From Planctomycetota bacterium (GTDB taxonomy: Bacteria > Planctomycetota > UBA11346), in contig JAFLCQ010000001.1 in the NCBI GenBank assembly GCA_017302815.1, positions 17,652 through 81,651 on the forward strand: a stretch of 64,000 bases of DNA. Reading direction: 5' to 3'. Positions 14,399-63,822 of the stretch are shown here, piece by piece. Under the pieces are notes generated by a model that had not been told where the DNA came from, did no database searches, and saw only the letters and a list, made by a program, of their open reading frames with translations. Both the position numbers and the translations under genes were made by a program. Every line of letters starts with the position of its first letter. Position 1 is the first letter of the stretch.

Positions 14399-14439
14399 GT
14401 TACCCAACCTTGTTATCGCAATGACTTACAACAGATTTT

Positions 14440-14561: not shown

Positions 14562-14572
14562 CAGGACGCCTG

Positions 14573-40300: not shown

Positions 40301-40727
40301 CGATCGTGAGGTCGAGGGAGATGAGACCTTCCAGGTCATCCTTTCGGCTCCGCATGGAGCGACTCTGGACGACGCCAGCGGCACCGGGACGATCATCGAC
40401 GATGACGTCTCCGGAGGCGGATCGTCATCAGGGGACGGAGGTGGCGGAGCCGGTGCTGGTGGCGGTGGCGGCTGCGGTGCTGGTGCGCTTGCGGGTCTGC
40501 TGCTCGTCCTGACGTCTTTGCTTCATCGTCGGGTCAGGCCAACAGGGGACGGGGGATCTCATCCTCGAATTGGACCGGGATCACGGTTGACGACGGATCG
40601 CCTCCATCCCGGACCCTGTCCAGGAGCCGCAGCGCCTGCCGGAGGATGCGACGGGCATCGAATCCGAGCCGGCGGCAAGGGATGGGAGGGGGTGTGGGGT
40701 CCGGGAGGTTGGCGTGGGCGACGATGA
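37362..40727 (+). CDS. Large surface protein: signal peptide, FN3-like modules, unassigned central domain, four Calx-beta domains, Gly-rich/hydrophobic/basic C-terminal anchor-like segment
   Basis: Four repeats of about 100 aa end in the Calx-beta pattern (DTTDEPNERFTVVLSDP, DTLVENDEEILLIV, DDVVDEEDETIIVDI, DREVEGDETFQVILSAP). The GGGGGCGAGALAGLLLVLTSLLHRR segment ends at nt 40532. The ORF then runs 64 more codons into the convergent regulator gene. Confidence 0.75.
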   Translation: MSGTTRAFAFGAIAFLMLVVASAGAAVPRDHAIAITATVQVDPPRITLAWPTIAGAGSIILFRKAPDSSSWGPLLANLPGSATSYVDAGVVVGQRYEYHIAATQNGVNAVGFVLAGIEIPLVEDRGRVLLVVDQTLQSALASEISRLRRDLVGDGWSVDTVPVRRQSTTATAGTALEVAAVKQAVDAAHQAAGRPLRAVLLLGRVPVPYAGLTAPDGHTNHLGAWPADVYYGAAGQEWTDHAVDAAGSSSRQSNRPGDGRLDPTWLETDSIAVAVGRVDFSAMPAFTGLTETDLLRRYLDKNHAFRHRARSYARRCVIDDNFGEPEPEARSGWLLASVVGSGHVVAGDIMGDATYSLWSYGSGGGTNTSASGVGTTANYVANSPRAVFTMLFGSWFGDYDQSNNLMRASLASPGSALTCVWGGRPQWLFHRMSLGEPIADSIVLSQGRLPYYLGQSAGIHSNLLGDPTLRMYILAPPGDLSAEDGNLVWTASADAAIDGFAGYHVYRANSADGPFERLTASPITATSWTDPTPPSRAAYQVRAVALTTTPGGTFLNCSQGAHAEFGFDVPAATISFRYGSAAFSEDGGSATVVVERTGSVAAAASVVYSTIFGSATAADFTHVGGVLSWDAADAGSRTITVPLSADTTDEPNERFTVVLSDPMGGSIPAPVSTVCIVDDDALPTVSIACDQTSIDEAGGFATFTISLSAASSRDVSISAAFWPTTGGAIRNTDYASSSTTLIIPAGTASVSVIVTAIQDTLVENDEEILLIVTSATNARSTSPDASVLIVDDDQPVVTLSIAGAVMAESDGVSVVTATLSSVAVRDARIGLEFTGSAALSEDWSRSGVSVLIPAGSISASITLAAIDDVVDEEDETIIVDIGSTLNAVESSVQRVVATVSDDDPPPILAIADAAVVEGDDGSTTCVFAVAVSGASDRPASCDWVATALSATAGVDFIVAGGTLTIPAGEAVGEVAVVVSGDREVEGDETFQVILSAPHGATLDDASGTGTIIDDDVSGGGSSSGDGGGGAGAGGGGGCGAGALAGLLLVLTSLLHRRVRPTGDGGSHPRIGPGSRLTTDRLHPGPCPGAAAPAGGCDGHRIRAGGKGWEGVWGPGGWRGRR

Positions 40728-41658
40728 CAGGAAGCTCGGCCTCCGTGATGCCGGCTTTGCGCAGCCCGGCTGCGACTTGCTGCAGATGGTTGTCGTCGCC
40801 GATGATCAGGCCGTCGGGGCGCACCTCGGATGGGGCGTCGAACAGGCTCAGGGCGATCTGGGAGGCGACCTCGCCCACGTTCCGCGATGCCGGCAACCCG
40901 AACCACCATCCTCGCCGTGTGGTCATGCCGGCCTTGGCGATCATCGGGGCGTAGCGGTCGTGAGCCCGACCGTCCACGGGATTCGATATGACTGCGAGAC
41001 GCTTGGCCCCGGCTGCGGCGAGGTGCTCGATGGCGCGCTCCATCAATTGCGGGTCGAGGACGATGTTGCTGCCGCCATTGATTTGGTCGGGGTCGCCGAT
41101 GAATGCCCATGGAAACCGGTGGGTGAATACGGTCGACGGCGAGAACGTGATCTGCCATGGAGTCACCGTGAACAGCACCCCGGCGAGCTGGTCGGTGGAA
41201 AGGTCATGGATGAGTCGCTGGTGGTCAGGTGTTGACACGTCCTGACGGACATCGGTGTAGATCGCGAACCGCTGCGGTATCCCCTTGGTCACCTGGGCCG
41301 CCTCCCTGGCCAGGCAGCTGCTGAGCCCCGTCCACTCGCTGTGATCCGGTTGGTAGGGGAAGACGAGGCCGTAGCGATATAGATGCGGAAGTAGTTCGAC
41401 GACGAAGGTTCCATGCCTGGCGCGGGATTCGACGAAACCCGCCTTGACCAGTTCGTCCAGCGCCCACTGCACGGTCGCAGAGCTCGCCTGGAATCGCTTT
41501 TCCAATTCGACCCGGGTCGGGATGCGGGTGCCTGGCTTCCAGGTTCCGTCACGGATCAGCGACCGCAGCTCATCCTCGATCTGCCGTCGCTTGCCGAGTG
41601 CGTATTTCGGTTCTCCGGAATGCGGATGTGGCGTGCCGGTGGTCATGCGAATAGCCAT
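40534..41658 (-). CDS. GntR-type wHTH transcriptional regulator fused to a LacI/PBP1-like sugar-binding domain
   Basis: N-terminal pattern IEDELRSLIRDGTWKPGTRIPTRVELEKRFQASSATVQWALDELVKAGFVESRARHGTFV, followed by a periplasmic-binding-protein-like effector domain of about 270 aa. Confidence 0.8.
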   Translation of the reverse strand: MAIRMTTGTPHPHSGEPKYALGKRRQIEDELRSLIRDGTWKPGTRIPTRVELEKRFQASSATVQWALDELVKAGFVESRARHGTFVVELLPHLYRYGLVFPYQPDHSEWTGLSSCLAREAAQVTKGIPQRFAIYTDVRQDVSTPDHQRLIHDLSTDQLAGVLFTVTPWQITFSPSTVFTHRFPWAFIGDPDQINGGSNIVLDPQLMERAIEHLAAAGAKRLAVISNPVDGRAHDRYAPMIAKAGMTTRRGWWFGLPASRNVGEVASQIALSLFDAPSEVRPDGLIIGDDNHLQQVAAGLRKAGITEAELPVIVAHANLPDPTPPPIPCRRLGFDARRILRQALRLLDRVRDGGDPSSTVIPVQFEDEIPRPLLA

Positions 41659-41872
41659 CGTGGACCGGTTTTGGGGAACGGAAACGGAGCGGTGGTCGGG
41701 TGGTCTCGGTCCTGATCATACGGACCCTATCGCATGGGATCGGTTTGGACTCATCGGACTCGCTGCTTTCGTGTCGTGGTGAAGCCTCGAACACGCCACA
41801 ACGGGACAAGGCCGGGAACGTGCGTTGAATAGCCATCGTTCCCTCCGCTATGCCATCCCATCCGAGGTCCCC

Positions 41873-43565: not shown

Positions 43566-46500
43566 ATGGCAAGGAGATATGCTGACAGTACCATCCTGAC
43601 CATGGTGGTGCGCCCGTCCGTCGCGAACCCGATCACGGGCATCACCCTGTTCGAGGTGGCCGTGTCGGCCGCCATCCTGCTATTCGTTGCCGTTGTCGTC
43701 TTCCTGAGCGTGACCACATCCCTGCGCACCCAGCAGCAGGCCCGGCTGCAGATCGCCGCATCCAGCCGCATGATGCAGCTCAGCCAGGCCTGGGCCCATG
43801 CCGACAACCGCTTCGCCGACCTCTGCCTCGAACGCGCCGAGATGGCGGCTCTGGGCACCGAGGTCGAGCACGATCTCGAACGACGCCTGTTCCTCCAGGT
43901 CACGCCTCCGTACGGCGGCAAGGAAGGCCACTACGCCGGCTGGGGCAACGTCGGCGTCGTACCGCCGTCCATCGTGGCCAGGCTCGACAGCGAGAACGAC
44001 GAGATCCGCAGGGTGCTCGCCGACGGGGGACAGCTCTATTATTTCCGCCCGGGCAGCGGGATCGCTGGACGTCATGGTGGCGAGCATGAAGGCACAACCT
44101 CCGCGACTGGCGACAACCAGCTCGACAGCGAGACGCGCAAGCTGGTATTCGCGGTGCGGGGCAAGCCGCAGCAGAACGGGCTGCGCAACCATCCGGCCTT
44201 GGATTGGCCCACCCACGAGTCGTACCCGGGTCCCCCCCAGCCCCACCACCGTCGCACGTGGGCCTGGAACATCGACCATCTCAGCCCAACGCAGCTGTCA
44301 TCGACCGTCACCGGAGTCGGTCGCGTCAAGGTCCTGGCGGGCGGCAGCAGCTTCGCCCAGCCGCCCAAGGTTGTCATCGAGGCGCCGGTAAGTGGGCGCA
44401 GGGCCACGGCCCGTGCCATAGTAAACCTGGGTCGGCTCAGCGCCGTCGAAGTCACCGATCCGGGGTACGGCTATACCGTGGCACCGACCGTGACGCTCGT
44501 TCCGGTCGATGGCGGGATCGGGGCCTCCGTCGAGGCGGTCACGACGCCGCTGTCGATGGCCCTGGTCGACTACGGTGCGGCGGATGCCGACAGCGAGATC
44601 AGCCAACCGAAATGGACGATCAGGTACCCCGGGGTCACCTGGCGGTCATCGGACCGCCTTGATTGCGAAGCCGCATTCAATCAGCTCTATGATTACTGCT
44701 ATCACTTCCGGACTCCGGGCATCGATGCAACCCTGGACGACAGGACCTGGGTCGATGCGCCGCATACCAAACTGGTGATGCTGCCGCAGGATTCATCGCC
44801 TTTGACGGTGAATTACAAGAATACTCTGATGCTCCGAATCCCCCCCAAGGATCGCCTTGGCTACATTCATGGTAAAAGCAGCTCGTATGATGACTGGCGG
44901 GATCCGGTGAATCGCTTCGGGCATGCCGGATACTGGCTGACCCAGATCCAGAGGACTCCTGGCACGTGGACCAACTGGACCGGAACTGTAGCGAAACCGG
45001 GCTATGCGCCGTGGGTCGGAGCTTGTCCAAGCGTACCGTCCGAGCCGTTCTACCAGCGCATCGATCTCGCCATCCCCAACTACGACAATCCTGTGTCGGA
45101 GAATGCGTCCACCGGCTCCGGCGGCAGGCTACATCAACTCCTGTTTCTCGCGCAGCAGCTGGTGCGCTTGACGATGATCGAGGGACCGGCGGGGGCATCG
45201 CAGATGACCTATGAGGACGTGGTCGATCCGGTCGATCCCGTGCTTGGCGTCCGCTGGCCGCTCCCTCATCCTCCCCAAGCCATTCCCGTGCCGGTGGGAG
45301 GGTGGCAGGACAGCAATGAGCAGGTGTTTCCACCGCCATTCAAGATCCAAGCCCTGTCCTACCTCGCGTGGGCTGCTCATACCGCCACCCGGGTCGCCGC
45401 TCCCGCCAATCCGGTCGGCGATGCCAACTGGGACCAGGGTGGCGGCATCCGCAGCATTACCGTCCTCGTTCCCGGCTCTGGCTACTCCGACCCGCCGCGG
45501 GTTGTCCTGTCGGGCGGCCCTGGCCATGGCTGCGTTGCCGTGGCCCAGCTTGATCCAGGCACCAAAGGGATATCTGCCGTACGCATCCTGAATCAGGGGT
45601 ACGGCTATGATCCGGCGCAGCCGCCGACTGTTTCCTTCGTCGGAGCGGCCACCGCTCCGGCAACTGGCGAGGTGTCGGCGACCGACATCAAGGTGAAGTG
45701 GCCGGATCCAGGTTCGGCGGCAGCCGAGGTCGCCAGATTGCAGGCCTATGCGCTTGCGCTCAATGACCGCTGCCGGCGCTGGGTTGCGCGCTATGCCAGC
45801 GCCGATCCGTATGACTGGGGGGCCCCGCGACCTGCCAACCGGGCCACAGCCTGGGACTTCCCGCTGCTGCAATCCGACGTGCTGCCGAAGGGCTACCATC
45901 GCCCGGATCAGACCACGCGCGATCGTCTGCCGTATGTCGACGACACCACCGTGCGACCGAATAGCGGTGACGCCGATCTATCAGGGTTGCCCGCCCTGCT
46001 GAGCCTGTTTGATCGCAGCGTAGCCGGTGGCGGGACGCAGAGCATGATCGAGCGCTGGCGGATAGAGCGGGATCGTCCGGCTTGGCGCCGTGGCGTTCCC
46101 TACACCATAGGTGTTCCCAGCGGTGCTGCGGCCGAGGATGTCGACCGCACGTGGAAGATCATCGCGCCACGCCAGCCGGTGAACTGGGGGCCGTCCTGGG
46201 CGCTGGATGGCTGGAACCGAGATCGGCGCATCTCCCAGCACGTGCTGCCGCCGGGAAGTCCGGGTGAGATCGAGGACCAACGCCAGGCTGGCAGTATGAA
46301 GATCGGTGCCGACTGGGACAACACGGCTAACCTGCGCTACAGCTGGGGTGATCACAACCGGTTCAACCTGCTTGCGCCGTTCAATGCCGCCGAACGGGCC
46401 AGGGAGGTCGTGTTCTGGTCGGTCGACTGGCAGCAGTATGAGGATTTCGAGACCGCCTATGAGGCGGTCTTCGATGCCCGGAGCTACTCGTCGCATTCCG

Positions 46501-46826
46501 ACTCGCGCAGCCCGCGCTCTCAGCAATACGCTCCAGACATCGTTGAAACCCGGCTGCATGCGGTTGACAGCAGCTATGCGGCATCGTCCGTCGGTGAATT
46601 CGACAATGCGGGCTCGTTCTCCGAGGGCGCCACCACCAGAATCGGCGTTATCGACCGGAATGGGAACGGACGTGCTTTCCAAGAAGACTACACCAAGGAT
46701 GTGATGGAACAAAAGGGCTACAAACCCGACATTGGTCCGTTGCGGGTCACCACCCGCCTCAGTGCGACCCTGGTCGCTCGGTTCCTGTATTACGATGGTC
46801 GAGTCATCTCGGGCCTTCGCCAATGA
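43566..46826 (+). CDS. Giant prepilin-like protein (about 1090 aa) with class III signal G|ITLFE and two internal GxGY..PP.V repeats
   Basis: ANPITG-ITLFEVAVSAAILLFVAVVVFLSV fits the prepilin cleavage/methylation motif. Start candidates are 43494, 43566 and 43602 (all in frame). Repeats at nt 44316-44513 and 45444-45641. Its stop overlaps the next gene's start. Confidence 0.7.
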   Translation: MARRYADSTILTMVVRPSVANPITGITLFEVAVSAAILLFVAVVVFLSVTTSLRTQQQARLQIAASSRMMQLSQAWAHADNRFADLCLERAEMAALGTEVEHDLERRLFLQVTPPYGGKEGHYAGWGNVGVVPPSIVARLDSENDEIRRVLADGGQLYYFRPGSGIAGRHGGEHEGTTSATGDNQLDSETRKLVFAVRGKPQQNGLRNHPALDWPTHESYPGPPQPHHRRTWAWNIDHLSPTQLSSTVTGVGRVKVLAGGSSFAQPPKVVIEAPVSGRRATARAIVNLGRLSAVEVTDPGYGYTVAPTVTLVPVDGGIGASVEAVTTPLSMALVDYGAADADSEISQPKWTIRYPGVTWRSSDRLDCEAAFNQLYDYCYHFRTPGIDATLDDRTWVDAPHTKLVMLPQDSSPLTVNYKNTLMLRIPPKDRLGYIHGKSSSYDDWRDPVNRFGHAGYWLTQIQRTPGTWTNWTGTVAKPGYAPWVGACPSVPSEPFYQRIDLAIPNYDNPVSENASTGSGGRLHQLLFLAQQLVRLTMIEGPAGASQMTYEDVVDPVDPVLGVRWPLPHPPQAIPVPVGGWQDSNEQVFPPPFKIQALSYLAWAAHTATRVAAPANPVGDANWDQGGGIRSITVLVPGSGYSDPPRVVLSGGPGHGCVAVAQLDPGTKGISAVRILNQGYGYDPAQPPTVSFVGAATAPATGEVSATDIKVKWPDPGSAAAEVARLQAYALALNDRCRRWVARYASADPYDWGAPRPANRATAWDFPLLQSDVLPKGYHRPDQTTRDRLPYVDDTTVRPNSGDADLSGLPALLSLFDRSVAGGGTQSMIERWRIERDRPAWRRGVPYTIGVPSGAAAEDVDRTWKIIAPRQPVNWGPSWALDGWNRDRRISQHVLPPGSPGEIEDQRQAGSMKIGADWDNTANLRYSWGDHNRFNLLAPFNAAERAREVVFWSVDWQQYEDFETAYEAVFDARSYSSHSDSRSPRSQQYAPDIVETRLHAVDSSYAASSVGEFDNAGSFSEGATTRIGVIDRNGNGRAFQEDYTKDVMEQKGYKPDIGPLRVTTRLSATLVARFLYYDGRVISGLRQ

Positions 46827-47947
46827 ACATGCCCAATCGCCGCTCCGGTATACCAATGTCAGACCCGTGGGCGGGATTCACTCTCCTCGAGATGATGCTG
46901 GCTCTCAGTGTCGGCCTGATGCTGATCCTGGTGACCGTTGCGTTGTTCCGGGCAACCAGCAAGGCCATCATCAGGTCCAACCGGATTGCGACCCAGAACC
47001 AACTGCTGATTGCGGGCATCTCGTACGCGCTCGACGATCTTGATGGTTGGGATACGTTGAATGATCCCGCCGATCCGACCAATCCGACCAAGCGCCCGAG
47101 GTTGTTCGTTGCGGCTCCGGTAAACGACGGTCGGCCATTCAACTGGCTCAAGCCATCCTATCCCGTGGGCGCGTTCCGCGCCAGCGATCCCAAATGGTGG
47201 TATGGATACAGGTTCGTCACCGCCGCGCGTGAGCGTGTCCCTGGCGGGGCATTGGCGCCGCAGTTGCCGCAATGGGTGCAGTTCGGAAGCCGAGGAGATC
47301 CGGTTGCGGATCGCGCATTCCTGCATCGCTGGCCGTATTATCTCTTCGAGCAATTGGGAATGTATGGCATGATCGACTATATGCCTCCAGGCGTTCCCAT
47401 CGGCCTGGCAGATATGTCCAGCCGGACTGTCAATGCAGTTGCGATCTGGGAGCCGAGTTGGCTGTATCCCTTCGAACTCATATCAGATACGACTGGATAT
47501 ACCAATCTTGTCCCTTCCGAGTACCCGATGACTGGCAGTCTAGGGCGTGAACAGTCTGTTGTCATTGTGAGTAATGATCTCGGATCTGGGGCGACGCCGG
47601 TAACGCAGCTCTATAATCGTAAGGTGTACTATGCGTCGAATCGCAATTCGACATTAACGAACAAGAATGCATTGTATCGGTTCTTCACCGCCGACGTTGC
47701 GCCGGTCCGGATCCTGCCCGCTGATGCCCCGTCTTCGATGGCGTCGTCGGCCCCTGTGGGACCAGTTGACTGGCCGCAGCTCGAGGTCGCTTCCTACAGG
47801 CTCATCCGCCGTGGTGTGCACCACAATCTGGCGGTCATCAGATTGCAGGATCCGATGACTGGCGAGATGCTTGCCACGACCGTCAGTGCCGTGAGCACAA
47901 CATTGCGTGGTGCTCGGATTGAACGCGGATTGGATGTGCTGCCATGA
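46823..47947 (+). CDS. Prepilin-type N-terminal cleavage/methylation domain protein (GspJ/minor-pilin-like, 374 aa)
   Basis: MNMPNRRSGIPMSDPWAG-FTLLEMMLALSVGLMLILVTVALF. 4-nt overlaps with both neighbours. Confidence 0.8.
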   Translation: MNMPNRRSGIPMSDPWAGFTLLEMMLALSVGLMLILVTVALFRATSKAIIRSNRIATQNQLLIAGISYALDDLDGWDTLNDPADPTNPTKRPRLFVAAPVNDGRPFNWLKPSYPVGAFRASDPKWWYGYRFVTAARERVPGGALAPQLPQWVQFGSRGDPVADRAFLHRWPYYLFEQLGMYGMIDYMPPGVPIGLADMSSRTVNAVAIWEPSWLYPFELISDTTGYTNLVPSEYPMTGSLGREQSVVIVSNDLGSGATPVTQLYNRKVYYASNRNSTLTNKNALYRFFTADVAPVRILPADAPSSMASSAPVGPVDWPQLEVASYRLIRRGVHHNLAVIRLQDPMTGEMLATTVSAVSTTLRGARIERGLDVLP

Positions 47948-49137
47948 GTTGTGTCAGGTCGGATCGGGGAGCGGTGCTCATCATAGTCGTCGGGATCGCG
48001 ATGCTGCTGCTCGCCATGACCACGGCGTTCGTGGCGCGCATCCGTTCTGATGTTGAGGCGGCAAGGGTCCTCGTCGGTGAGGCGCAGACCAGGACGCTGA
48101 TCGCGGCTGCCTGTGCCTATGTCCTCGAAACCGGGCGGATCGGTTGGGGCGAAGAGGCGTACGGCTGGTGCGACATCCGCGATGACAGTGATCCGGCTGC
48201 CCTGCCTGGTCCACGCGGAAGGGATGGCCGACAACTGCCCAAGCGTCACGATGGAAGCTGGGCGGTCGATCCGGCTGCGGCACCGCTCTTGCGCTGGCCG
48301 GCTATCGGTGGCATCGCCCGTTGTCCGATGTTTCTGCCGACTCTGCCTCCGTATGCCACCAAGGGACAGTACGCCTATAATCCGGTGCCGCGGCGCTCGT
48401 ACAGCCTCGCCGAACCGGATGCGTCCGGTTACCCATCCACCTGGAGCATCGGCGTCCGCTACAATGCGCTCAGTCCGCAGCCGGCTGCGTTTCCCAATCC
48501 AGAGCCGGCGGGACCTTGGCGATGGGATGATGCGGCCAGTGGCATCCCTGGTGGATATGCCGAAGTCTCGACTGCATTTGCTGCTGGCGGGCGCGTTGTG
48601 AACACGGATCCAGGCAGCCTGCAAGGCTTGGCTGGGACGCAGCTCGGATGGTTTCGGGTATTGCGGATAGGCGTCGATGTCTTCGTCGTCTCGGCTGGCA
48701 GCGGAGCCTCGCGCGGGTTTCGCACGTGGCAGGAAGTGGTCGAATCAGGCGCACAAGCTATATTCTACAATGATCCGGCCTTGTTCCGCAGCGCCTCTGC
48801 GTCGGACCGGCCATTGTGGTATGAGATCCAGTGGTCCTCATCGGTTGGCGGCCGTGGAACGGGGCAGTATGCGGCTCAGTCGGTCATATCCGATCTTGGC
48901 AAGGACCACACGAACTCCGACGTCTTTCAAATATTGGCGCCACCGCATCTGGGGTACGAATTGATTCCACATGGTCTTCCATCAGGCGTTACGTACCCAG
49001 ATGTGCTTTCGCGTGACATGCCGCTGCACAACTCTCTGTCATTCAAGAGTAGAAGTTCATCACCGCATCAGGGGGTCAACCAGCTGGGCACCCTGTCGCA
49101 GATCCGTCGCCTGTTCGCGGAGCCGGCATTATGGTGA
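47944..49137 (+). CDS. GspK/PilX-like minor pseudopilin (no Glu5), 397 aa
   Basis: The N-terminus SDRGAVLIIVVGIAMLLLAMTTAFVARI resembles GspK-type hydrophobic segments that lack the conserved Glu. Position within the pilin operon supports the call. Confidence 0.6.
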   Translation: MSCVRSDRGAVLIIVVGIAMLLLAMTTAFVARIRSDVEAARVLVGEAQTRTLIAAACAYVLETGRIGWGEEAYGWCDIRDDSDPAALPGPRGRDGRQLPKRHDGSWAVDPAAAPLLRWPAIGGIARCPMFLPTLPPYATKGQYAYNPVPRRSYSLAEPDASGYPSTWSIGVRYNALSPQPAAFPNPEPAGPWRWDDAASGIPGGYAEVSTAFAAGGRVVNTDPGSLQGLAGTQLGWFRVLRIGVDVFVVSAGSGASRGFRTWQEVVESGAQAIFYNDPALFRSASASDRPLWYEIQWSSSVGGRGTGQYAAQSVISDLGKDHTNSDVFQILAPPHLGYELIPHGLPSGVTYPDVLSRDMPLHNSLSFKSRSSSPHQGVNQLGTLSQIRRLFAEPALW

Positions 49138-49706
49138 AGCGTGGATTCACGGTGGTCGAGCTCCTGACCGCCATGGCGATCATCGGGATCCTCATCGGCA
49201 TCCTGATCCCGACAGGCATTATGATCCTGAATCGGAAGGACGTGCAGACGACGCGCAGCCTGGTTCAGGCCGTGGTTGCGGCCATGGCCGCGTATCCCGT
49301 GCGGTCCTGGGAGGTGCGCATAGCCGATACATCCGGTGTAAATCCATCGCTGCGCCACGCGTCCTACCCCTGGCTGTGGGATCTGAACCAGCAGGAACCT
49401 GGCGATCGACCAGGGGACGGCCTCATTGATGGAATCCCTGCGGCAGCAGCTGATGCATCCCATGACGGCCCCTTTTGGAGCGGCCTGATTGCCTCAGGCT
49501 ACCGTGGCTTCGCCGAGATGGCGATGCCGAACCTGCCTGAATCCCGGCGTGCGGCGAACGGCCAGCCGATCGACGCGTGGAAGCGCCCGCTGCGCGTGCG
49601 CTATTCGGGCATGAATGGCGGTCCGGGCGGGTATGAAGTGTGGTCTGCAGGTCCTGACGGGATAGATGGGTCATCCGATGACATCCGCGATGATGGTGCG
49701 CGATGA
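49131..49706 (+). CDS. GspG-like major (pseudo)pilin
   Basis: MVKRG-FTVVELLTAMAIIGILIGILIP with C-terminal DAWKRPLRVRY...YEVWSAGPDGIDGSSDDI, matching the T2SS-G pattern (DPWG.PY.Y...S.GPDG..GT.DDI). Confidence 0.8.
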   Translation: MVKRGFTVVELLTAMAIIGILIGILIPTGIMILNRKDVQTTRSLVQAVVAAMAAYPVRSWEVRIADTSGVNPSLRHASYPWLWDLNQQEPGDRPGDGLIDGIPAAAADASHDGPFWSGLIASGYRGFAEMAMPNLPESRRAANGQPIDAWKRPLRVRYSGMNGGPGGYEVWSAGPDGIDGSSDDIRDDGAR

Positions 49707-50368
49707 GCGGAATGTCTGCACGTACGTGCGGGTTCACCCTCGTCGAGCTGGTCGTCGTCCTGTCGATCGTCACCCTGCTTGCTGCGATCGCCGCACCACG
49801 TGTCGTGGCTGCACTGGGCCGCGCAGGTCTGGATAGAGCCACTGCATCCGTGGTCGCGACTGCCGCCGCAGCCCGGACCATGGCGCAACAGCAATGGATG
49901 CCGCAGATCAACCAGGCGCCAGCACGTTTCGGGGTCGTCATCGTCCAGTCCGCCGGGCAGCAACCGTATGTGGCACTAACCTATGGCATCAGCAATCCGC
50001 CGTTGCCCGAAGAAGTGCTGCTTCGCAAAGAGCAGTCTTGGCGGACATATGCGGAGTATCTGGCCACTCCCAATGAACTGGATGCCAACGGCCAGCCCAT
50101 CCCGGTACGCATGGCACGCATCGGAGGCGATCTCCTGTTCCACCGGCCTCCAGCGGCAACTCCGCTGGCTGACCAGCCTATCTCCGGCAGCTGGGGATGG
50201 ATATGCCATCCTCGTCGTGGTGCGATCGTTTCTGCCTTGTCGACATGGGCGAAGCCGGTCGATGTCGGCACTTCTCCGATGCTGGTTGTCCGTAACAATG
50301 CTGCACAGATGGCTGCGGCGATAGCGATCTACAGCGTGGGAGCGAGCCATGTGCAGACCTTGCGCTGA
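49703..50368 (+). CDS. Prepilin-type N-terminal cleavage/methylation domain protein (GspH-like)
   Basis: SARTCG-FTLVELVVVLSIVTLLAAIAAP. 4-nt overlap with the upstream gene. Confidence 0.75.
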   Translation: MSGMSARTCGFTLVELVVVLSIVTLLAAIAAPRVVAALGRAGLDRATASVVATAAAARTMAQQQWMPQINQAPARFGVVIVQSAGQQPYVALTYGISNPPLPEEVLLRKEQSWRTYAEYLATPNELDANGQPIPVRMARIGGDLLFHRPPAATPLADQPISGSWGWICHPRRGAIVSALSTWAKPVDVGTSPMLVVRNNAAQMAAAIAIYSVGASHVQTLR

Positions 50369-50375
50369 TCCTCGG

Positions 50376-51692
50376 ATGGCATGCAGGGCTGGGTTCACCC
50401 TGGTCGAGCTGCTCCTGGTGATCGCGGTAATCCTCGTCCTCGCCGGCATGATTCTCGCCGTCCGCGGTCCGCTGATGGAGTCCCAGCGCGCCAGTCGGAC
50501 GAGGGCCATCCTGGCGATCATCCAGCAGGGGCTCTCCCTGTGGGGTACCGAGCACGGCTCGGTCCCGTCCCCGGTTGAGCACCCGTTCGCTGGCTCCAAG
50601 GCTCCTCGTCTCGATTTCCGGGGCCTGCGATCCGGCGTCTGGACCGACCTGCTTCCTACCGGCGAGGCATTGTGCGGGGTCGACGAGGCGAGGCTGGACG
50701 TCGTCACGGACCCCACGGCTCCGCAGCGCCTCTTGGGCCCGAATGACCTCTTCAATGAACCGGACATCCCGGCATTCTATGGTGTCGAGCGATCCCACAT
50801 GGGCATCCTGGGTGAGGCCCAGGCGAACATCACGCGGCGTCTGGATCTGTCGTTGGCGCCGGGCAGCGGTGTCATCCAGGCGGGAGCGAATGGCTACCGC
50901 CCCTACGATCGATGGGCCTTCGCGGGCAGTCCCAGGTGCGCCGCGCATGTCTCGATCGATCCACCGCATTACCCCGATCTCCGACTGGGCAACCCGGCGT
51001 TCCCGCGCAGTGAATATCTGGTCGAGGGGATAGCGCGTACGGTCGACAAGATTCCGGATCCGGCCTTGACGGGCAGCGGATTCGGCATTGCAACCATGTG
51101 TAGCAGTCCGCTTGGACCAGCTGATCAGGCGGTGGCATTATCTCTGTACCTGAGCCAGGCCGTGTTGCAGGAACTGCGTGACCTTGGAGGGGCCACGGCG
51201 CCAGCCGATGATGATCCATCGCGTCTCGTTGTGCCCGGTCCTGGCGTTCCGGCTTGCGCGGAGTGGGTTCCGGAATTGAAGCAGCGTTGGCTGCTTGGCC
51301 GGGACCCTGGCCCCAGCCCGGTCGTGGTCCAGCGGCCCTATCAGGCGAGTGTGCCAAGGGTCTGGTCGGATGGCGTCGGCACCGCGACGTGGGAACCCGG
51401 GCGAATACGCGCCTCGCTCGATGGGAGTGGGTCATGGGTGCGCTACCGCCTGCGCGGGCTGGCGCTGTACGACGCCTGGGGGACGGAACTGCTGTATGTG
51501 CGCAAGTCTGATGGCACACCGATCGTCATCTCGGCAGGACGTGACCGCTGCTTCGCCCTGGTCCCCGGCTTGCGCGATGCGAATGGGGCCAGCATCTTTG
51601 CTACCAGTCTCGCCAACGGTCTTGCCGGTGGTCCGGTTGCTCCGGATCGCGATGGACGACTCGACAACATCAGCCTCGATGGGAAGCGCTGA
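50376..51692 (+). CDS. Prepilin-type N-terminal cleavage/methylation domain protein (438 aa)
   Basis: MACRAG-FTLVELLLVIAVILVLAGMIL; short leader if ATG 50376 is used (the tracked start is 50349). C-terminal YDAWGTELLYV...ISAGRD echoes the GspG C-terminal pattern. Confidence 0.75.
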   Translation: MACRAGFTLVELLLVIAVILVLAGMILAVRGPLMESQRASRTRAILAIIQQGLSLWGTEHGSVPSPVEHPFAGSKAPRLDFRGLRSGVWTDLLPTGEALCGVDEARLDVVTDPTAPQRLLGPNDLFNEPDIPAFYGVERSHMGILGEAQANITRRLDLSLAPGSGVIQAGANGYRPYDRWAFAGSPRCAAHVSIDPPHYPDLRLGNPAFPRSEYLVEGIARTVDKIPDPALTGSGFGIATMCSSPLGPADQAVALSLYLSQAVLQELRDLGGATAPADDDPSRLVVPGPGVPACAEWVPELKQRWLLGRDPGPSPVVVQRPYQASVPRVWSDGVGTATWEPGRIRASLDGSGSWVRYRLRGLALYDAWGTELLYVRKSDGTPIVISAGRDRCFALVPGLRDANGASIFATSLANGLAGGPVAPDRDGRLDNISLDGKR

Positions 51693-51739
51693 TATGGGCA
51701 CCGAACTGAGTCGTCGCAGGTCAGGCTCGTGGAACGGGG

Positions 51740-54502
51740 ATGTCGACCATGGATAGTCAAAGCGGCAATGAGCCATCGCCATCCAGCGTAGGCGAGGATT
51801 CGGCTCTCCATCGCGCCATGGGGATGGAGACTGCGGTGTGGCGTCGTGCCGTCGGGGAGGGCCGCCTCGGCTCTACGGACATATCTGCCGGGAATGGCGG
51901 GTCTCGGTGCATGGAGGGTCTGAGCCTTACCGCGCTGGTCGAGGATGCGCGGCAGGTGGGGCGCCGGCATGCCATGCCCCTGGTCGTTCTGATAGAGGTG
52001 TTCCACAAGGCGGCTGTCCAGATCGCCCGCGCCCACGACCGCTTGGTGCTGCACGGCAATCTCGATCCCGATAAGCTGCTGGTGGGCCGTTTCGGCGAGG
52101 TCGTCATCACAGACTGGTCCTCGAATCGGCAGACCTGTGCGACATCCAAGCCATGGACCGGCGTTTCTGCGGGTGGCCGTCTCGGACCGGAAGACGATCT
52201 GTATGCGCTGTGCGCCTGCATGTGGTACGCATTGCATCTCGAGCCCCCGGCGGAGGGCGATCTCAGGCCATCGGACAAGCTCCCGCCGGCCGTTCGGGAT
52301 CTGCTGCTGCGTGGCCTTTCGCCGCAGCATTCCATCCGGTTCCGCGATGCCCACCGGCTCACAACTGCAATCCGAGCCTTGGCGCCGGTCGGATACCGCT
52401 TTGATTCCGAAGGCGCCTTGTCCACGTATCGGCGGCGGACGGCATGGATCGCCGGATGGATCTTCGCCATATCGCTGCTGGCGGCGGCAATAGTCTCCGT
52501 CATCGTGGTGGTGCGACCACTGACCGCATCCCGGCCAGTGGAACATCGTCCTGCGCCTATTCTGCAGGAATCGTTCACCGATGAATCGTGGAGAGGACGT
52601 TGGAAGCCGCGAGGTGATCCGGACCAGTTCACCGTCACGGATGGCGCCCTGGTGAACCGGACGGAATCGGCGATCCTCGTCCTCGACCGACTGATCGCTC
52701 CGCCTGCAACGATGGAATTCGTCGGCGAAATTCCTGCTGGCAGCGATCCCGGCGACCTGTCCGTCGTCTGGGGGGAGGGCAGTCTGCTGGATCCGCTCTG
52801 GACCTTTCCGCATGCGGCGAAACTGCCCGACAAGGGGCGGTTCTACCTGTTCCAGAATGGCGCCTATGACAACACCTATTCCTGCATCCAGCAGTCGGCC
52901 GACGGGATCCTTGCCAGCGTTGCGTATCAGCACGAGCGTCTGGATATCGGACGCAGGTATCGGATTCGCGTTGAGATCGAGTCCCGTAGCGTTGCGATGT
53001 GGCGGGACGGTCGTCTGATCGGCCGGCACGAGTTCGATGTCGCATTGCGTCCAGGTACCTTCGCCTTGTATCTCTATCACCCAGGCAAGCAGGTGCGTGA
53101 TGTACGTGTTTGGTCGGGTGAACCGATGGCGGATCCATTGCAGGTCGGGGATGCATTCCTGGGCGTCGGCGCGGCCTCCGCGGCGGCCGACTCATATATG
53201 GGGGTCATCCAGTCCGGTAGGCAGCCCCAGCTTGTCGAATCGGCGCGTTACCGCCTAGGTCTGGCGCAGCTGGCGGCTGGTGAGCGGGAGGCATCGGTCG
53301 CGACATGGAGCGGATTGCGGGATCCGGTGCTTGCCGGCCGCAGCAGGCTTCAGCAACTGGATGCCCTGATTGCAGCCGGAGCCCATGACGCAGCCCTGGC
53401 GATCCTTGAAGATGTGTATGTCCGCATTCCAGATCTGCGAGGCCAGGTCGCGGTGCGGTTGGCGGCGATTCTTGGGCGCGTCACCTGGGATCAACGTTTC
53501 GACGACTATGTCCAGCTACGCGAACGACTTCTGGCGAATGATGACATCACCGGAATCAGCGCCGCCCGCTATCTGGGATGGCGCAATCGACATGAACGTG
53601 TCGTGGCGCGCTATTCGAAGTATCGTGCTATCTATCTCGACAGCCTGTTTGCTCTGGGTGACCTGGATCGTGCGGAGCGTGACGGTTCCGACATCCCAAG
53701 CGTAAACGTGCGTCTGGCCCTGGAACGCGGGCAGTTCGAGCTGCTGGCCTCGCGTCCGGTAGGCCACGTGCTGGCATCGTGCCTTCTGGGGCGTTTTGAT
53801 GCGGCCGCCGCAGCATCACCCGGGGATCCCTTGCCGCTGCTATATGCCGGGCGATTCGCGGAAGCGGCTGCCAGTGTCGGCCCGGAGCGGCTCGTCACCC
53901 TGGCCCGGCGATGGATGTCCGGGTCCTCCGGTCCCGAACTGCGGATCGGGACAGAGCGTCTCGATGCCCTCGTGCGCTCTGCCTTCGATGCGGGCAGGGA
54001 TGGATGGTGCGATGCCCGGCTCGGAGCGGAGGCGTTGCTGCGAGGACGTATCGAGGGGCGGGCGGCGGATGAGCAGAGCAAGCTGCTCGTCATGCTGTCA
54101 AATTCGAAGGCGAGGCAGGAGGATCCACTGGTCTGGTTCCACCACCTGGTGGTTCCTGCGTATCTGCAGGCCCTGGATGGTCATCCGGAGGCATTGGACG
54201 ATGCGGTCGCCAAGGTGTCCTACCGGTATCGCGACCGCTATGGACAGCGGTTCTGGTACTTCGCGCAGCGCGTATGCGGGTTGGTCGACGAGGGGGCCTT
54301 CATGGCCCAGCCCGCCCGGGTCGAAGCCCAGGCGTGGCTCGCGCTCGCTGACGCCATGGCGGCGGATCGCCGTGGGGATCGATCGGCTGCTTTTGCATAT
54401 TGGCGATCCTTGGCAGCAATGCCTCCGCACAGGCGCTGCTTCGGCGGTATCGAAGGCAGCAGGGTGGCAGACGTGCTCATCGCCTGGCGCAGCTCGCCAT
54501 GA
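51740..54502 (+). CDS. Single-pass membrane protein: degenerate Ser/Thr-kinase C-lobe (pseudokinase), TM helix, LamG/DUF1080-like module, TPR-like helical repeats
   Basis: HGNLDPDKLLV stands in place of HRDLKPxNILV (nt 52052 onward), and ITDWS in place of DFG (nt 52109). There is no Gly-rich loop or VAIK upstream. TM helix WIAGWIFAISLLAAAIVSVIVVV at nt 52445-52513. The C-terminus is Ala/Leu/Arg-rich helical repeats. Confidence 0.65.
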   Translation: MSTMDSQSGNEPSPSSVGEDSALHRAMGMETAVWRRAVGEGRLGSTDISAGNGGSRCMEGLSLTALVEDARQVGRRHAMPLVVLIEVFHKAAVQIARAHDRLVLHGNLDPDKLLVGRFGEVVITDWSSNRQTCATSKPWTGVSAGGRLGPEDDLYALCACMWYALHLEPPAEGDLRPSDKLPPAVRDLLLRGLSPQHSIRFRDAHRLTTAIRALAPVGYRFDSEGALSTYRRRTAWIAGWIFAISLLAAAIVSVIVVVRPLTASRPVEHRPAPILQESFTDESWRGRWKPRGDPDQFTVTDGALVNRTESAILVLDRLIAPPATMEFVGEIPAGSDPGDLSVVWGEGSLLDPLWTFPHAAKLPDKGRFYLFQNGAYDNTYSCIQQSADGILASVAYQHERLDIGRRYRIRVEIESRSVAMWRDGRLIGRHEFDVALRPGTFALYLYHPGKQVRDVRVWSGEPMADPLQVGDAFLGVGAASAAADSYMGVIQSGRQPQLVESARYRLGLAQLAAGEREASVATWSGLRDPVLAGRSRLQQLDALIAAGAHDAALAILEDVYVRIPDLRGQVAVRLAAILGRVTWDQRFDDYVQLRERLLANDDITGISAARYLGWRNRHERVVARYSKYRAIYLDSLFALGDLDRAERDGSDIPSVNVRLALERGQFELLASRPVGHVLASCLLGRFDAAAAASPGDPLPLLYAGRFAEAAASVGPERLVTLARRWMSGSSGPELRIGTERLDALVRSAFDAGRDGWCDARLGAEALLRGRIEGRAADEQSKLLVMLSNSKARQEDPLVWFHHLVVPAYLQALDGHPEALDDAVAKVSYRYRDRYGQRFWYFAQRVCGLVDEGAFMAQPARVEAQAWLALADAMAADRRGDRSAAFAYWRSLAAMPPHRRCFGGIEGSRVADVLIAWRSSP

Positions 54503-54522
54503 TCATCCACCGGTGTCATTCC

Positions 54523-55518
54523 ATGCGAAATGCCGGATTCTCGCTCATCGAACTCGTGCTGGTCATGTCGATCATCGCGGTCCTAGCCCTGCTGATGATC
54601 CCGTTGATCGGATTTTTCCGTGAGCAGGCTCGCTGGGCGGTGACGACAGCGCGCATGCAGGATCTGTTGACTGCTGCCGCGGCGCTTGAAAAGACTGCGC
54701 TAACCCTCCAGCGCCAGGGCGGTCTCGGAGGCGTGACGCTGTTCATCCGGAAGTCACAAGCGCAGATCGATCTGGTCAACAGCAATCCCTCGCGCAACAA
54801 TCCGTTTCTGGACACCCCGATGGCGGCGAAACCTGCGGAATGGTTGACCCAGTCGCAGTACGATCAGCCCTGGTATTTCGGGTTCCCATGGAACGAGACG
54901 GATCGCATCCAGGCCAGATCCTCGTCGATGCTGCCTGCGGGCACTGTTTCCGAGTCGCAAGCGATCGATGCTGCCGGTTTCCAGACGGCGACGCTGTCCG
55001 ACCTGTCGCCACTCCGTTCGTTCGAGCTGATGTCGGCCATGGGGGCATTCAATGATGTGGCCGATGCGGCTGCGTCCTACCGCACGGATCGTGGTGCGGA
55101 CCGGCGATGGAATGATGCTTGGGGCCGGCCTCTGGTTGTTGCATTCGGACTATTCCAGCCTCCGCCCAGGACCGCGATTATCTATGACGCGTACAGTCCA
55201 ATTGCCACGTTTGCGCAGGACGGCTGGCGTGTCGCGGAATCGCTGAAGATGTATGGCTATGATCGGGCTATCTACGTGTCGGTCGGTGCGGTCGGACCGT
55301 CCTTGCCCGCTGGTCTTCCGCCCGATTCGATCACGGATCCGGCAGCTGGCGTTTGGACGGCGACTGTGCTTCCCTCCTTGTGGAGCAGGATCACTACGGC
55401 TTGCGGCGGTTCGACTTGGACCGGGGCGTCGTTTGCTTCGCCGCCATGGAAATCGGTGCGCACGGCCAAGGATACGGAGGGGGCATGCGCACTCTCTGCC
55501 CCAGCTGTTCTGCGCTGA
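54523..55518 (+). CDS. Prepilin-type N-terminal cleavage/methylation domain protein (331 aa)
   Basis: MRNAG-FSLIELVLVMSIIAVLALLMIPL from internal ATG 54523 of the tracked ORF, 20 nt after the pseudokinase stop. Confidence 0.78.
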   Translation: MRNAGFSLIELVLVMSIIAVLALLMIPLIGFFREQARWAVTTARMQDLLTAAAALEKTALTLQRQGGLGGVTLFIRKSQAQIDLVNSNPSRNNPFLDTPMAAKPAEWLTQSQYDQPWYFGFPWNETDRIQARSSSMLPAGTVSESQAIDAAGFQTATLSDLSPLRSFELMSAMGAFNDVADAAASYRTDRGADRRWNDAWGRPLVVAFGLFQPPPRTAIIYDAYSPIATFAQDGWRVAESLKMYGYDRAIYVSVGAVGPSLPAGLPPDSITDPAAGVWTATVLPSLWSRITTACGGSTWTGASFASPPWKSVRTAKDTEGACALSAPAVLR

Positions 55519-55654: not shown

Positions 55655-57415
55655 TCACGGAACGTTGTCCGACGATACCATGAATGGGAATCCTGGAAAT
55701 TCCATGAATCCGGTGCATTCGATCTCGCCACCACCTGGAACCGGGATGTCCTTGCGTTCGACGTGCACGTCGCCCAGCCGGTAATTGATGACCTTCCTGC
55801 CTTCGAAATCGCAGACTGTGAAGACATAGCCTTCATTGGTGCTGTTGGTCCGCATCTGCTGCACGTGCACCGGATCGCTGAACCGGCTGTCGCGGAAACG
55901 CCGATAGCACTCACCCCCGGTGGGGGTGATCTCGACCCAGTCGATCTCCTTGTCGCCACGACAGGCGATGAGGAATACGTAGTTGATGGAGTCCCACGAT
56001 CCGGTTCCGGATCCCTGCGTGGTCCGGAGGCGATCGCCCTGGCGCTGATGTGAAATGGCCACCGGATTGTACCCGATCGGGATGGTGACGTGCGGTTGGA
56101 CGTCGGCGGGGGCTGCCGGTGCTGTGGTGAGCAGGCCGCCGACGGTGAAGACCCGCAATTCGCCGGCTTCGCAGGCGATGGCTGCGATAGCCGGACGTCC
56201 GTGGGCGGCGCGCATCGATGTCCGAACCGCGGTGGGGGTTGGAACGGTGATGGTCGTGACCGGAAGCGGGGTCATGGTCGGATCGTGTTTGAAGCTGTAT
56301 GGCCACTTCCCGTCCGCGAGATCGAATCCTTGTGCCTTCGCTGCCGCCTCGGCGGTCGTGAAGCAATGCCGCTGGATGCCGGCGAATAGCGGCTGGAGAT
56401 CGATGAAGGACGCCTGATTCCCGGTCTTCGAGATGATCACGGCGTATCCGGATGCCGCGATTTGCGGGTCGACTGCGAGTCGCTGCCGCGCTTGAGGCGT
56501 GGAGTAATCCAGCTCGTATACGAATTGGGGTGCCGGGATGCGAGGATTGCTGGCGGCTGTACATGCAATACCGCTGGGCAGCTCCAGACCAGGGATGTCG
56601 ACGTAGCCCAGGAGCTTTATCAGGTTGTGCACTCCCCAGTTCGGCAGGCATGATCCGACCTTGCCTTTGTCGCGAAGACCGAGCGCAAGAACGGCCAATT
56701 GAGCCATCTGCTGCTTGGCATCCCAGATCGTCACGAGCAGGAACTCGTTCTTATTCGTTACGGCCAGCGAAGTCGGCCATTTATGCGGAGGGAACCTGAA
56801 CGAGGGATAGTATTTCACATTGTTGACCGAACCTGATCCGATCAATCCATTGTTGAAGATGATGAAGCCGATGCCGGAATAGGCGGAATATGCCCTCTCC
56901 ACGAAGAATGGCCGGCCTACCTCTCCCCACGACTGCTCCAGAACGCCAGGTTCCGGGTGGCTTCCCCCCCACCAGGAAGGCGCCGGGGTGAATTGCAACG
57001 TGTTGTGGTTGTAATCGCCGATGATGATGCGGTCCACACCAGCGTCGGATCGCTTGTCGGGAACGTACAGAACCTGTCCCTGGGTGCACCAGTAATTGCC
57101 TGCTTCGGCCTTGGGGGTTCCGAAGTTGTAGATCGGTTTATGGCCGAACGGAAGTCGTTGCATCGATGCCAACGGAACAGTCACCGGCTTGATTTCCGGC
57201 CAATCCGGGCGTTCGGCCTTGGGCCGGGTGCGCGGACCGAGCCGTTCGTTGATGGACCTGAGATCGCCTGGATGCGCCATCGCCGCATATCGGCTTCGGT
57301 TGACGCGCTGGGGAGATGCTCCGGACTCTGGCGAGGCCGCATCCTCTGCGAGGCAGATGCCATGGGTCAGGCCCAGTATCAGGATGAGGATCCGGATGCG
57401 CTGGAATCGCAGCAT
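55655..57415 (-). CDS. Secreted hypothetical protein
   Basis: Signal peptide MLRFQRIRILILILGLTHGICLA. 586 aa with beta-rich composition. No motif I recognise. Confidence 0.6.
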   Translation of the reverse strand: MLRFQRIRILILILGLTHGICLAEDAASPESGASPQRVNRSRYAAMAHPGDLRSINERLGPRTRPKAERPDWPEIKPVTVPLASMQRLPFGHKPIYNFGTPKAEAGNYWCTQGQVLYVPDKRSDAGVDRIIIGDYNHNTLQFTPAPSWWGGSHPEPGVLEQSWGEVGRPFFVERAYSAYSGIGFIIFNNGLIGSGSVNNVKYYPSFRFPPHKWPTSLAVTNKNEFLLVTIWDAKQQMAQLAVLALGLRDKGKVGSCLPNWGVHNLIKLLGYVDIPGLELPSGIACTAASNPRIPAPQFVYELDYSTPQARQRLAVDPQIAASGYAVIISKTGNQASFIDLQPLFAGIQRHCFTTAEAAAKAQGFDLADGKWPYSFKHDPTMTPLPVTTITVPTPTAVRTSMRAAHGRPAIAAIACEAGELRVFTVGGLLTTAPAAPADVQPHVTIPIGYNPVAISHQRQGDRLRTTQGSGTGSWDSINYVFLIACRGDKEIDWVEITPTGGECYRRFRDSRFSDPVHVQQMRTNSTNEGYVFTVCDFEGRKVINYRLGDVHVERKDIPVPGGGEIECTGFMEFPGFPFMVSSDNVP

Positions 57416-63312: not shown

Positions 63313-63597
63313 TGTCGGCTTGGCGTCCTTGGACGCTGACTTCGTCGGGAGCATGCTCCTCCGCCGGGCCCGTCCAAGCCGCTCTCTCTGTTCGAATCCG
63401 TCTTGGTTCACGGAATGAACAGCCCTCATAACCCGGGTCGATCTCCACCCCGGAGAAATAGAGAATCCGGCTTTCCGAGGGGGTGTTTGGCTTGGTCTCC
63501 AAGCGGAGAGCCCCGAAACGGAGAACGGGGTCGGAGCGGGAACCTTGGCAGAATCCGCGGAAAACGCGCGGGGTCCGGCGCCAGGTGTCAGATAACA

Positions 63598-63627
63598 AGA
63601 AACCCACGGCTTTCGCCGTGGGTTTCT
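63598..63627. terminator. 13-bp-stem hairpin AGAAACCCACGGC-tttc-GCCGTGGGTTTCT (bidirectional terminator-like)
   Basis: Perfect stem with T-rich sequence after it on both strands (CTTAGTT on plus, TGTTATCTG on minus). Lies 286 nt after the GH95-like stop. Confidence 0.6.
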
Positions 63628-63822
63628 CTTAGTTCGACGAACCGGACAGGGCTTATAACACGGGCAGAGAGCCGAGAGAGATTCCGGCCGGGCGGCGCTT
63701 TTCCGGGGTTGTCCGCCCCGTCCGGGCGAAGTCCTGGACCGGACAGAGAGATCCCGCCAACGCGAAACCCCACGGAAAACCGTGGGGTGTGCGCCGGCCT
63801 TGGGGCCTGGACCTGTTAGCGG

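Follow-up and report, generated by a model that had tools for sequence, protein, structure and literature searches.

Organization of the Cassette

A cassette of eight co-oriented open reading frames (ORFs), named W1-W8, occupies 43.5-55.5 kb on the + strand of a 64-kb stretch of Planctomycetota DNA (assembly GCA_017302815.1, contig JAFLCQ010000001.1, positions 17,652 to 81,651). This whole stretch is referred to below as the window. The first three genes, W1, W2 and W3, encode a trio of large pilin-like proteins, which is the part of the cassette retained in most of its relatives. They are followed by further prepilin-like proteins and a membrane pseudokinase. The genes are chained closely, as was described in a previous sequence-only reading of this DNA. 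The W1/W2, W2/W3, W3/W4 and W4/W5 pairs overlap by 4, 4, 7 and 4 nt, respectively. At the W5/W6 junction, the choice of the W6 start decides between an overlap of 20 nt and a gap of 7 nt; the W6/W7 and W7/W8 pairs are separated by 47 and 20 nt. All overlaps are thus within 4-20 nt and no gap exceeds 47 nt. Scanning the operon for promoters and terminators gave nothing above the shuffle expectation.

The class III (prepilin) signal was searched for in the six-frame translation of the whole window using a strict motif, G[FI][TS][LV]xE with 16 hydrophobic or small residues after it. Exactly six matches were found, all of them on the + strand and at the N-termini of W1, W2, W4, W5, W6 and W8 (nt 43638, 46874, 49143, 49730, 50391 and 54535); the motif occurs nowhere else in the window in any of the six frames. 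The six signals noticed in the sequence-only reading were confirmed in this way and are unique to these N-termini. The genes carrying them are not strictly consecutive, as that reading had put it, since W3 and W7 are interspersed among them. The Pfam N_methyl model (PF07963) is matched above its cut-off by W4, W5, W6 and W8. W2 remains below it (15.3 vs the cut-off of 21.2), and W1 of the window does not match this model. An origin of the cassette from chance or spurious ORFs was ruled out by the motif count together with the orthologues and the co-variation described in the next section.

Relatives of the Cassette and the Conserved Trio

The W3 alignment, used to scan 185,579 species genomes, revealed 45 related loci. 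All of them belong to metagenome-assembled genomes (MAGs) of Planctomycetota, with several loci per genome. To establish gene content, W1-W8 served as queries against the six-frame ORFs of every locus. In every locus that holds all three genes (40 of 40), W1, W2 and W3 are adjacent and follow one another in the same order; the other loci are cut or fragmentary. Most loci carry the trio only, and about ten add W4-, W5-, W6- or W8-like genes. The conserved unit is the trio W1-W2-W3, not the set of eight genes. The synteny is real, and the homologues are not scattered singly, an outcome that had been considered when the cassette was first noticed.

The fuller cassette is also found outside the window. 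In GCA_041442895.1 and in a locus designated L004, the eight-gene set is present with 32-55% identity, and reciprocal BLAST shows one-to-one orthology at 32-51%. The cassette of GCA_041442895.1 encodes proteins of 1001-426-401-187-219-437-338-909 aa, and that of L004 encodes proteins of 401-1193-327-374-199-245-448 aa, followed by the kinase. A third locus, L010 (kinase-424-1025-363-379-191 aa), holds six of the eight genes, its contig ending inside the cassette. Only W8 and the kinase change position between the related cassettes. Recurrence of the eight-gene set in relatives was borne out for GCA_041442895.1 and L004, and for six of the genes in L010, and failed for the majority of copies, which are limited to the trio.

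The trios are strongly divergent even within one organism. The MAG DASPLE01 contains 14 complete trios, with median pairwise identities of 37% (W1), 33% (W2) and 44% (W3). The pairwise identity matrices of the three proteins, compared over 32 loci, correlate at r = 0.87-0.88, which indicates that the three genes were duplicated and diversified as a unit. Two complete trios stand in direct tandem at L025:803-11005. At L027:6241-12973, a second W1-like gene is located right after the trio and the contig ends before a second W2 or W3. Such tandem arrangement points to local duplication as the mode of family expansion. In the assembly collection, 92 blocks list the trio at L056:4184-11146 (783-517-381 aa; P0022), which indicates an abundant uncultured planctomycete as its host. 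A gene for an RVT_1 reverse transcriptase lies about 600 bp upstream of this trio.

Proteins of the Trio

W1 (43566..46826, + strand) is a giant prepilin-like protein of the PilV/GspI type, 1086 aa long when read from 43566, with the signal G/ITLFEV. Alternative starts are found at 43536, which is the public gene call, and at 43602, which leaves a 13-aa leader (MVVRPSVANPITG); the protein probably starts at 43602. The N-terminal consensus of the family is RrG/FTLFEVAISL, and the glutamate at position +5 (Glu5) is invariant. Full-length relatives of W1 are scarce, only 3 having been found among 5.8 billion protein clusters; they are encoded in the cassettes of GCA_041442895.1, L004 and L010. 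The family spans 550-1200 aa, and W1 itself clearly falls outside the size expected of GspI and PilV (about 120-185 aa). Conservation is observed in an N-terminal block (residues 26-225) and in C-terminal blocks (726-775, 926-975 and 1051-1086), with lineage-specific insertions separating them. Three GxGY repeats of about 45 aa each were recognized in the inserts (residues ~260-720; window 44400-45700). These repeats are covered by no Pfam model, and short matches to them occur in unrelated giant surface-type proteins with Cu-oxidase, fn3, FG-GAP or VCBS domains. A CBM_5_12 module was detected in 2 of the 41 W1 homologues (Pfam scan, E <= 1). As a family, W1 proteins match N_methyl (30/41), TIGR02523 PilV (31/41, best E 3.7e-9) and GspI (TIGR01707, 13/41), both of the latter sub-threshold, and weakly Verru_Chthon B (19/41).

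W2 (46823..47947, + strand; 374 aa) is a minor prepilin-like protein that takes the J position in the trio and has the signal G/FTLLE. Glu5 is invariant in this family as well, the N-terminal consensus being R.G/FTLIEl. The N_methyl model matches 40 of the 41 family members. Matches to GspJ models are weak and less frequent (PRK08808 in 8/41 and TIGR01711 in 5/41), and generic prepilin models also match. W2 of the window reaches 12.8 bits with a GspJ/PilW-type profile, the cut-off of which is 295.

W3 (47944..49137, + strand) is a pilin-like protein of the GspK/PilX type, 397 aa long, with an N-terminal transmembrane helix and no Glu5. In the window it starts with ...RG/AVLIIVVG, a hydrophobic residue replacing Glu at +5, and the GspK/PilX-like N-terminus attributed to this ORF in the sequence-only reading is thereby confirmed. 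The family consensus is RrG/TVLIIVAG, and position +5 is occupied by I, V or L in all 40 motif-bearing sequences. The conserved C-terminal strand ends with ...RLxxEPxxW. An exhaustive HMMER search among 1.84 billion representatives found the family in 347 clusters at 50% identity; W3 thus represents a rare but real family. The T2SS_GspK model NF037980 matches 27 of 86 members below its cut-off (best E 2.3e-4), and matches to ComGG (7/86) and Verru_Chthon A (3) were also found.

The structure of W3 was predicted with AlphaFold2 (AF2). A model from 9 sequences, with a predicted local distance difference test score (pLDDT) of 51.8 and no Foldseek matches, was superseded by one from the 86-sequence alignment, with a mean pLDDT of 71.6 and a core above 90. 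The core consists of a 57-residue helix (7-63) lying against a sheet of five strands, one of them the terminal strand 383-390; two long inserts are of low confidence. GspK itself combines a pilin fold with an inserted alpha-domain. K-type pilins of type II secretion systems (T2SS), according to one report, supply their own terminal strand, which in type IV pili (T4P) is supplied by PilY1 (PMC12918778). The confidently predicted C-terminal strand of the W3 model matches the K-type strand as it is described there.

Further Proteins of the Cassette

W4 (49131..49706, + strand; 191 aa) is a GspG-like candidate for the major pseudopilin. It passes the N_methyl cut-off with 23.3 bits and is the only cassette protein of the window with a recognizable globular match. 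The GspG model TIGR01710 is matched at E 8.8e-11 (42 bits vs the cut-off of 88.85), and T2SSG (PF08334) is matched by the C-terminal part only, residues 145-184 (18.1 bits vs 21). The match to PilA is weaker (E 8e-5). The L004 orthologue is 51% identical. Judging by these scores, W4 would be classed as GspG-like and not as an equivalog. It is the one protein of the cassette that looked like an ordinary GspG in the sequence-only reading.

W5 (49703..50368, + strand; 221 aa; N_methyl 27.7 bits) is a minor prepilin-like protein of GspH/FimU size. Its N-terminus matches GspG, GspH and Verru_Chthon D, all below the cut-offs, and an orthologue is present in L004. Being only slightly long for a GspH-type protein, W5 is an exception to the earlier statement that all pilins of the cassette other than the GspG-like one exceed the usual size 2-8 times. 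W6 (50349..51692, + strand; 447 aa, or 438 aa from 50376; N_methyl 23.9 bits) is a large minor prepilin-like protein with a 40% identical orthologue in L004, and W6-like genes adjoin the trio in six further loci (L014, L017, L026, L028, L045 and L052). W8 (54523..55518, + strand; 331 aa; N_methyl 24.4 bits) is another minor prepilin-like protein. Its orthologue is the first gene of the L004 cassette and stands ahead of the kinase in GCA_041442895.1; W8-like genes adjoin trios in about 10 loci.

W7 (51740..54502, + strand; 920 aa) is encoded between W6 and W8 and is a single-pass membrane pseudokinase. It comprises a cytoplasmic degenerate kinase C-lobe at ~80-220, a transmembrane segment at ~246-268 and a large extracytoplasmic part. 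The catalytic loop reads HGNLDPDK instead of HRDLKPQN, so that HRD is changed to HGN and the catalytic-loop Asn to K; DWS stands at the DFG position. Neither a Gly-rich loop nor the VAIK lysine was found in the protein, which together with HGN and DWS led to its designation as a pseudokinase. There is no Pfam Pkinase match in W7, and the PknD model PRK13184 aligns with residues 82-128 only (34.6 bits). The pseudokinase and its one transmembrane segment agree with the sequence-only reading; the tetratricopeptide repeats that it also assigned to this protein found no Pfam match and remain unconfirmed. The L004 counterpart of W7 keeps both GxGxxG (GQGGMG) and VAVK, which suggests that W7 of the window is a degenerate member of a kinase travelling with the cassette. 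W7-like genes also occur in GCA_041442895.1, L010 and L054. The L054 protein (L054:3153-5183) begins at the transmembrane segment and lacks the whole kinase-like domain, so that the extracytoplasmic part may be the conserved functional portion. W7 is thus predicted to be a catalytically dead membrane kinase homologue. It would probably sense or scaffold rather than phosphorylate, although this is speculation.

Assembly Machinery and Genomic Surroundings

Machinery families of T2SS and T4P (secretin, GspE/F/L/M/O, Pil proteins and prepilin peptidase) are absent, by Pfam, from the ~30 likely genes of the window, which is in line with the sequence-only reading. The machinery-free flanks of the cassette comprise 43 kb upstream and 8 kb downstream. 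The same holds for other copies: no machinery gene was found near those in GCA_041442895.1, L006, L056, L059 and about 40 more loci, with flanks of up to 10 kb, and no GspE-type Walker A motif was found in the ~3,000 ORFs (at least 90 aa) of 55 loci and the window. Around further trio copies, Pfam annotation of the flanks shows unrelated genes for housekeeping or efflux. These flanks support a type IV filament module that is separate from its machinery, as proposed when the cassette was first described. Alternatively, a canonical T2SS/T4P cluster could have been split by rearrangement or by an assembly break, the cassette being its pseudopilin part, cut off from gspD/E/F. Distant linkage is possible for this particular genome, the public copy being a metagenome contig of 47,960 bp. 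A split of this kind is nonetheless highly improbable in view of the extent of the machinery-free flanks in the window and of the independent copies that likewise stand apart from any machinery gene.

The cassette of the window adjoins genes of carbohydrate-active enzymes (CAZymes), as had been noticed: GH28, GH95, heparinase II/III, BNR, CBM9 and pectate-lyase-fold genes were identified nearby. A pectate-lyase-fold gene (41825-43381) precedes the cassette. Divergent from it is a gene (40534..41658, - strand) for a LacI-like regulator combining a GntR helix-turn-helix (HTH) with a periplasmic-binding fold (Pfam GntR and Peripla_BP_3), which is a candidate regulator only. Regulators of the same type are located on both sides of the GCA_041442895.1 cassette, which is also flanked by CAZymes. 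Most trio copies have no CAZyme neighbours. A general linkage of trios to CAZymes was considered and rejected: among the 116 nearest neighbours of the 45 copies, mostly regulators and housekeeping genes, the recurrent ones are AraC regulators (9), LacI/GntR-type Peripla_BP_3 regulators (4) and HDOD proteins (3), not glycoside hydrolases. The CAZyme connection suggested by the window alone does not extend to the family. BLAST clustering of the wider flanks additionally revealed a group of four kinase-like genes. TonB-dependent receptor-like genes adjoin trios in three to four loci; one BLAST cluster comprises those at L011:3828-6077, L036:12517-14892, L049:4138-5913 and L045:1-423. The Pfam scan lists a TonB receptor barrel in two members of this cluster.

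Several other features of the window were recorded. Small Cys-rich ORFs (6399-7105) and an ORF with an ArsR-like HTH (7590-8051) come after a CzcCBA-like efflux operon of the resistance-nodulation-division (RND) type, with OEP, HlyD and AcrB-family genes; the whole region, 444-8051, looks like a metal-resistance islet. At 12557-15481, a DUF4238 gene (- strand) and a DUF3800 gene (+ strand) lie in a patch of lower GC content (0.61-0.64 vs about 0.66), which may be a mobile or defence-related insertion. Two ORFs on the - strand, 55655-57415 (586 aa) and 61741-63903 (720 aa), show coding-like GC content at third codon positions and no Pfam match; the former and the end of the cassette are convergent. 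Rfam and tRNA scans found no RNA genes in the window.

Comparison with Known Filament Systems

The minor pilins I and J of T2SS and T4P possess Glu5, and the K subunit lacks it. The trimer GspI-GspJ-GspK (PilV-PilW-PilX) nucleates assembly and stays at the filament tip. The large subunit of the known systems is K, and the smallest is I (~120 aa). Among the closest parallels to the cassette is the T2SS tip with GspH and GspG, such as that of the E. coli Gsp system or XcpV-W-X of P. aeruginosa. The trio likewise consists of three adjacent genes in the I-J-K order. Glu5 is found in the first two proteins and is absent in the third, W3 has its own C-terminal strand in the model as K does, and G- and H-like genes belong to the same operon. 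Weak matches to GspI/PilV, GspJ and GspK profiles recur in the respective families. On the basis of these sequence features, W1-W3 can be said to occupy the I, J and K positions and to carry the same signal logic. The idea of a tip module, put forward in the sequence-only reading, gains from the PilV/GspI-, GspJ- and GspK-type signatures of genes 1-3 and from their order. The same reading had recognized no described system in the gene order. In fact, the order W1-W2-W3-W4-W5 reads as I-J-K-G-H, a permutation of gspGHIJK with extra genes.

The differences from T2SS are also considerable. The cassette order is IJK-GH and not GHIJK, and there is no linkage to gspC-F or gspL-O. W1 proteins are 550-1200 aa long and bear variable inserts, unlike the I subunit. 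Up to 14 trio copies are present per genome, and the cassette includes two further large pilins and a pseudokinase.

Myxococcus xanthus possesses multiple (three alternative) sets of minor pilins and PilY1 (PMC7541494, PMC8833165). The trios can be likened to these complexes of type IVa pili (T4aP), where several alternative, differentially regulated tip sets per genome serve one machine and where a large adhesin-sized component goes with the minor pilins, as W1 does. Unlike these complexes, the trio includes no PilY1 beta-propeller and its large component is itself a pilin; W4 is GspG-like, and the copy number is far higher. The cassette might accordingly serve a retractile T4aP-like pilus, with W1 as a minor pilin of the PilV type that took over an adhesin function like that of PilY1 and with the trios as alternative adhesive tips for attachment to surfaces or polymers and for motility. 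The higher frequency of PilV than of GspI matches in the W1 family (31/41 vs 13/41) speaks for it, as do the multiple Myxococcus sets, the CBM_5_12 modules of two W1 homologues and the reported enhancement of chitin adhesion by the type IV pili of a planctomycete (PMC11131199). Such a pilus is, however, rather unlikely: W4, the only candidate for a major subunit, matches GspG best and not PilA, the W3 family matches GspK and ComGG but not PilX models, and neither a PilY1 beta-propeller nor a PilB/T/C gene is located nearby.

Modular pilins such as S. sanguinis PilB/PilC, CofB and ComZ (PMC8179133) resemble W1 in carrying bulky extra modules, presumably tip-exposed, on a pilin module, and in both groups some members have carbohydrate-binding modules. 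The extra parts of W1 are not attached through a linker but stand within the protein, flanked by the conserved N- and C-terminal blocks, and most of the inserts match no known domain. A further parallel is provided by the Verru_Chthon proteins A-D of Verrucomicrobia (TIGR02600/02598/02599/02596), which also form a multi-copy, machinery-detached cassette with prepilin signals within the Planctomycetes-Verrucomicrobia-Chlamydiae (PVC) group. This cassette belongs to a different phylum and is a four-gene unit instead of a trio, and all scores are far below the cut-offs (W5 vs protein D, 27.1 vs 70; W8 vs protein C, 22.3 vs 256.5). The cassette proteins of the window do not match Verru_Chthon A or B. 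A literature search found no paper dealing with planctomycete pseudopilins or their cassettes, and none dealing with the Verru_Chthon cassette.

The prepilin pathway might also be used here only for membrane insertion and processing, the products forming a static envelope complex rather than a polymerizing filament. The archaeal bindosome, made of sugar-binding proteins with class III signals, would be a precedent. Most copies consist of the trio only, with no adjoining gene for a major pilin, the globular domains have no detectable pilin homology, and TonB-dependent receptors and sugar-type regulators stand beside some copies, all of which speak for a static complex. This interpretation is improbable given that the I-J-K-like order and the pattern of Glu5 presence and absence are specific to filament initiation complexes, that the fuller cassettes add G- and H-like subunits and that the W3 model shows the pilin layout of a helix and a sheet.

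Proposed Model

It is probable that the locus encodes type IV filament subunits without a motor, most likely those of a T2SS-like pseudopilus: a GspIJK-type initiation or tip module with a giant variable I subunit, accompanied by its own G- and H-like pilins and served by machinery encoded elsewhere. According to this model, W1, W2 and W3 would be divergent counterparts of GspI-GspJ-GspK (PilV-PilW-PilX) and would form the initiation/tip complex. W3, lacking Glu5 and having its own terminal beta-strand, would play the K role and W2 the J role. W1 would act as the I subunit, grown to its present size by lineage-specific modules between the conserved terminal blocks, and its inserts would provide the variable surface of the tip. 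In the fuller cassettes, W4 may polymerize under this cap, and W5 (H-sized), W6 and W8 would serve as adaptors or as additional minor subunits. Other parts of the genome would encode the prepilin peptidase, ATPase, platform and secretin, for shared use.

Several results weigh against this model. In the window, W1 does not match the PilV or GspI models, and W3 does not match the GspK profiles NF037980 and PF03934. All profile links of the three families are below the cut-offs and mostly involve the N-terminal helix. Profile searches of the PDB sequences with the three family alignments returned the pilin N-terminal helix only, and the 86-sequence W3 model has no Foldseek match in the PDB at E <= 0.001, the GspK structures included. 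The size relation is inverted in comparison with the known systems, the I-like W1 being the giant. Within the loci and the window, which the search covered, neither a prepilin peptidase nor an ATPase or a secretin was seen for any of the genomes, and the machine is assumed. Pfam scans of 86 W3, 41 W2 and 41 W1 sequences (E <= 1) likewise gave no T2SSK, PilX_N, T2SSI or T2SSJ matches, but only N_methyl and the two CBM_5_12 modules. With sub-cut-off scores and no globular match, the W1-W3 families would not be classed as members of GspI/J/K.

Divergent trios are numerous, each has diversified as a unit, and an AraC or LacI/GntR-type regulator of its own often stands next to it, which suggests that they are interchangeable tips. 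The divergent trios would be regulated separately and would change the ligand or cargo specificity of one and the same machine. Such interchangeable tips would parallel both the minor-pilin/PilY1 sets of Myxococcus and the modular pilins. A role of the trios in glycan capture is weakly supported speculation, the sole direct hint at glycan binding being the CBM_5_12 module in 2 of the 41 W1 homologues.

Significance

The fibre proteins of planctomycetes and the players in their proposed uptake of high-molecular-weight sugars have been described as unknown (PMC12673574, PMC11131199). The trios could be substrate-specific, separately induced tips of the fibres that are proposed to capture whole macromolecules for uptake into the enlarged planctomycete periplasm, and would then be a functional counterpart, based on filaments, of the SusC/D-type polysaccharide utilization loci of Bacteroidota. 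The W1 inserts would serve in this case as the ligand-binding element, and the linked AraC and LacI/GntR regulators together with the kinases would constitute the induction circuit. This extension of the model is unlikely.

Irrespective of the ligand, three uncharacterized families for which there is no Pfam or NCBIfam model behave as a unit with the signatures of filament initiation and of the filament tip. Within a genome, these families have reached a dozen or more divergent copies, which often have as a neighbour a regulator belonging to a commonly sugar-responsive type. They are concrete candidates for how one filament machine could gain many specificities, and they extend the idea of the modular pilin to an I-type subunit with internal variable inserts. 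Should the trios be no more than ordinary alternative minor pilins, hundreds of proteins now labelled hypothetical in MAGs of Planctomycetota would still gain a useful annotation.

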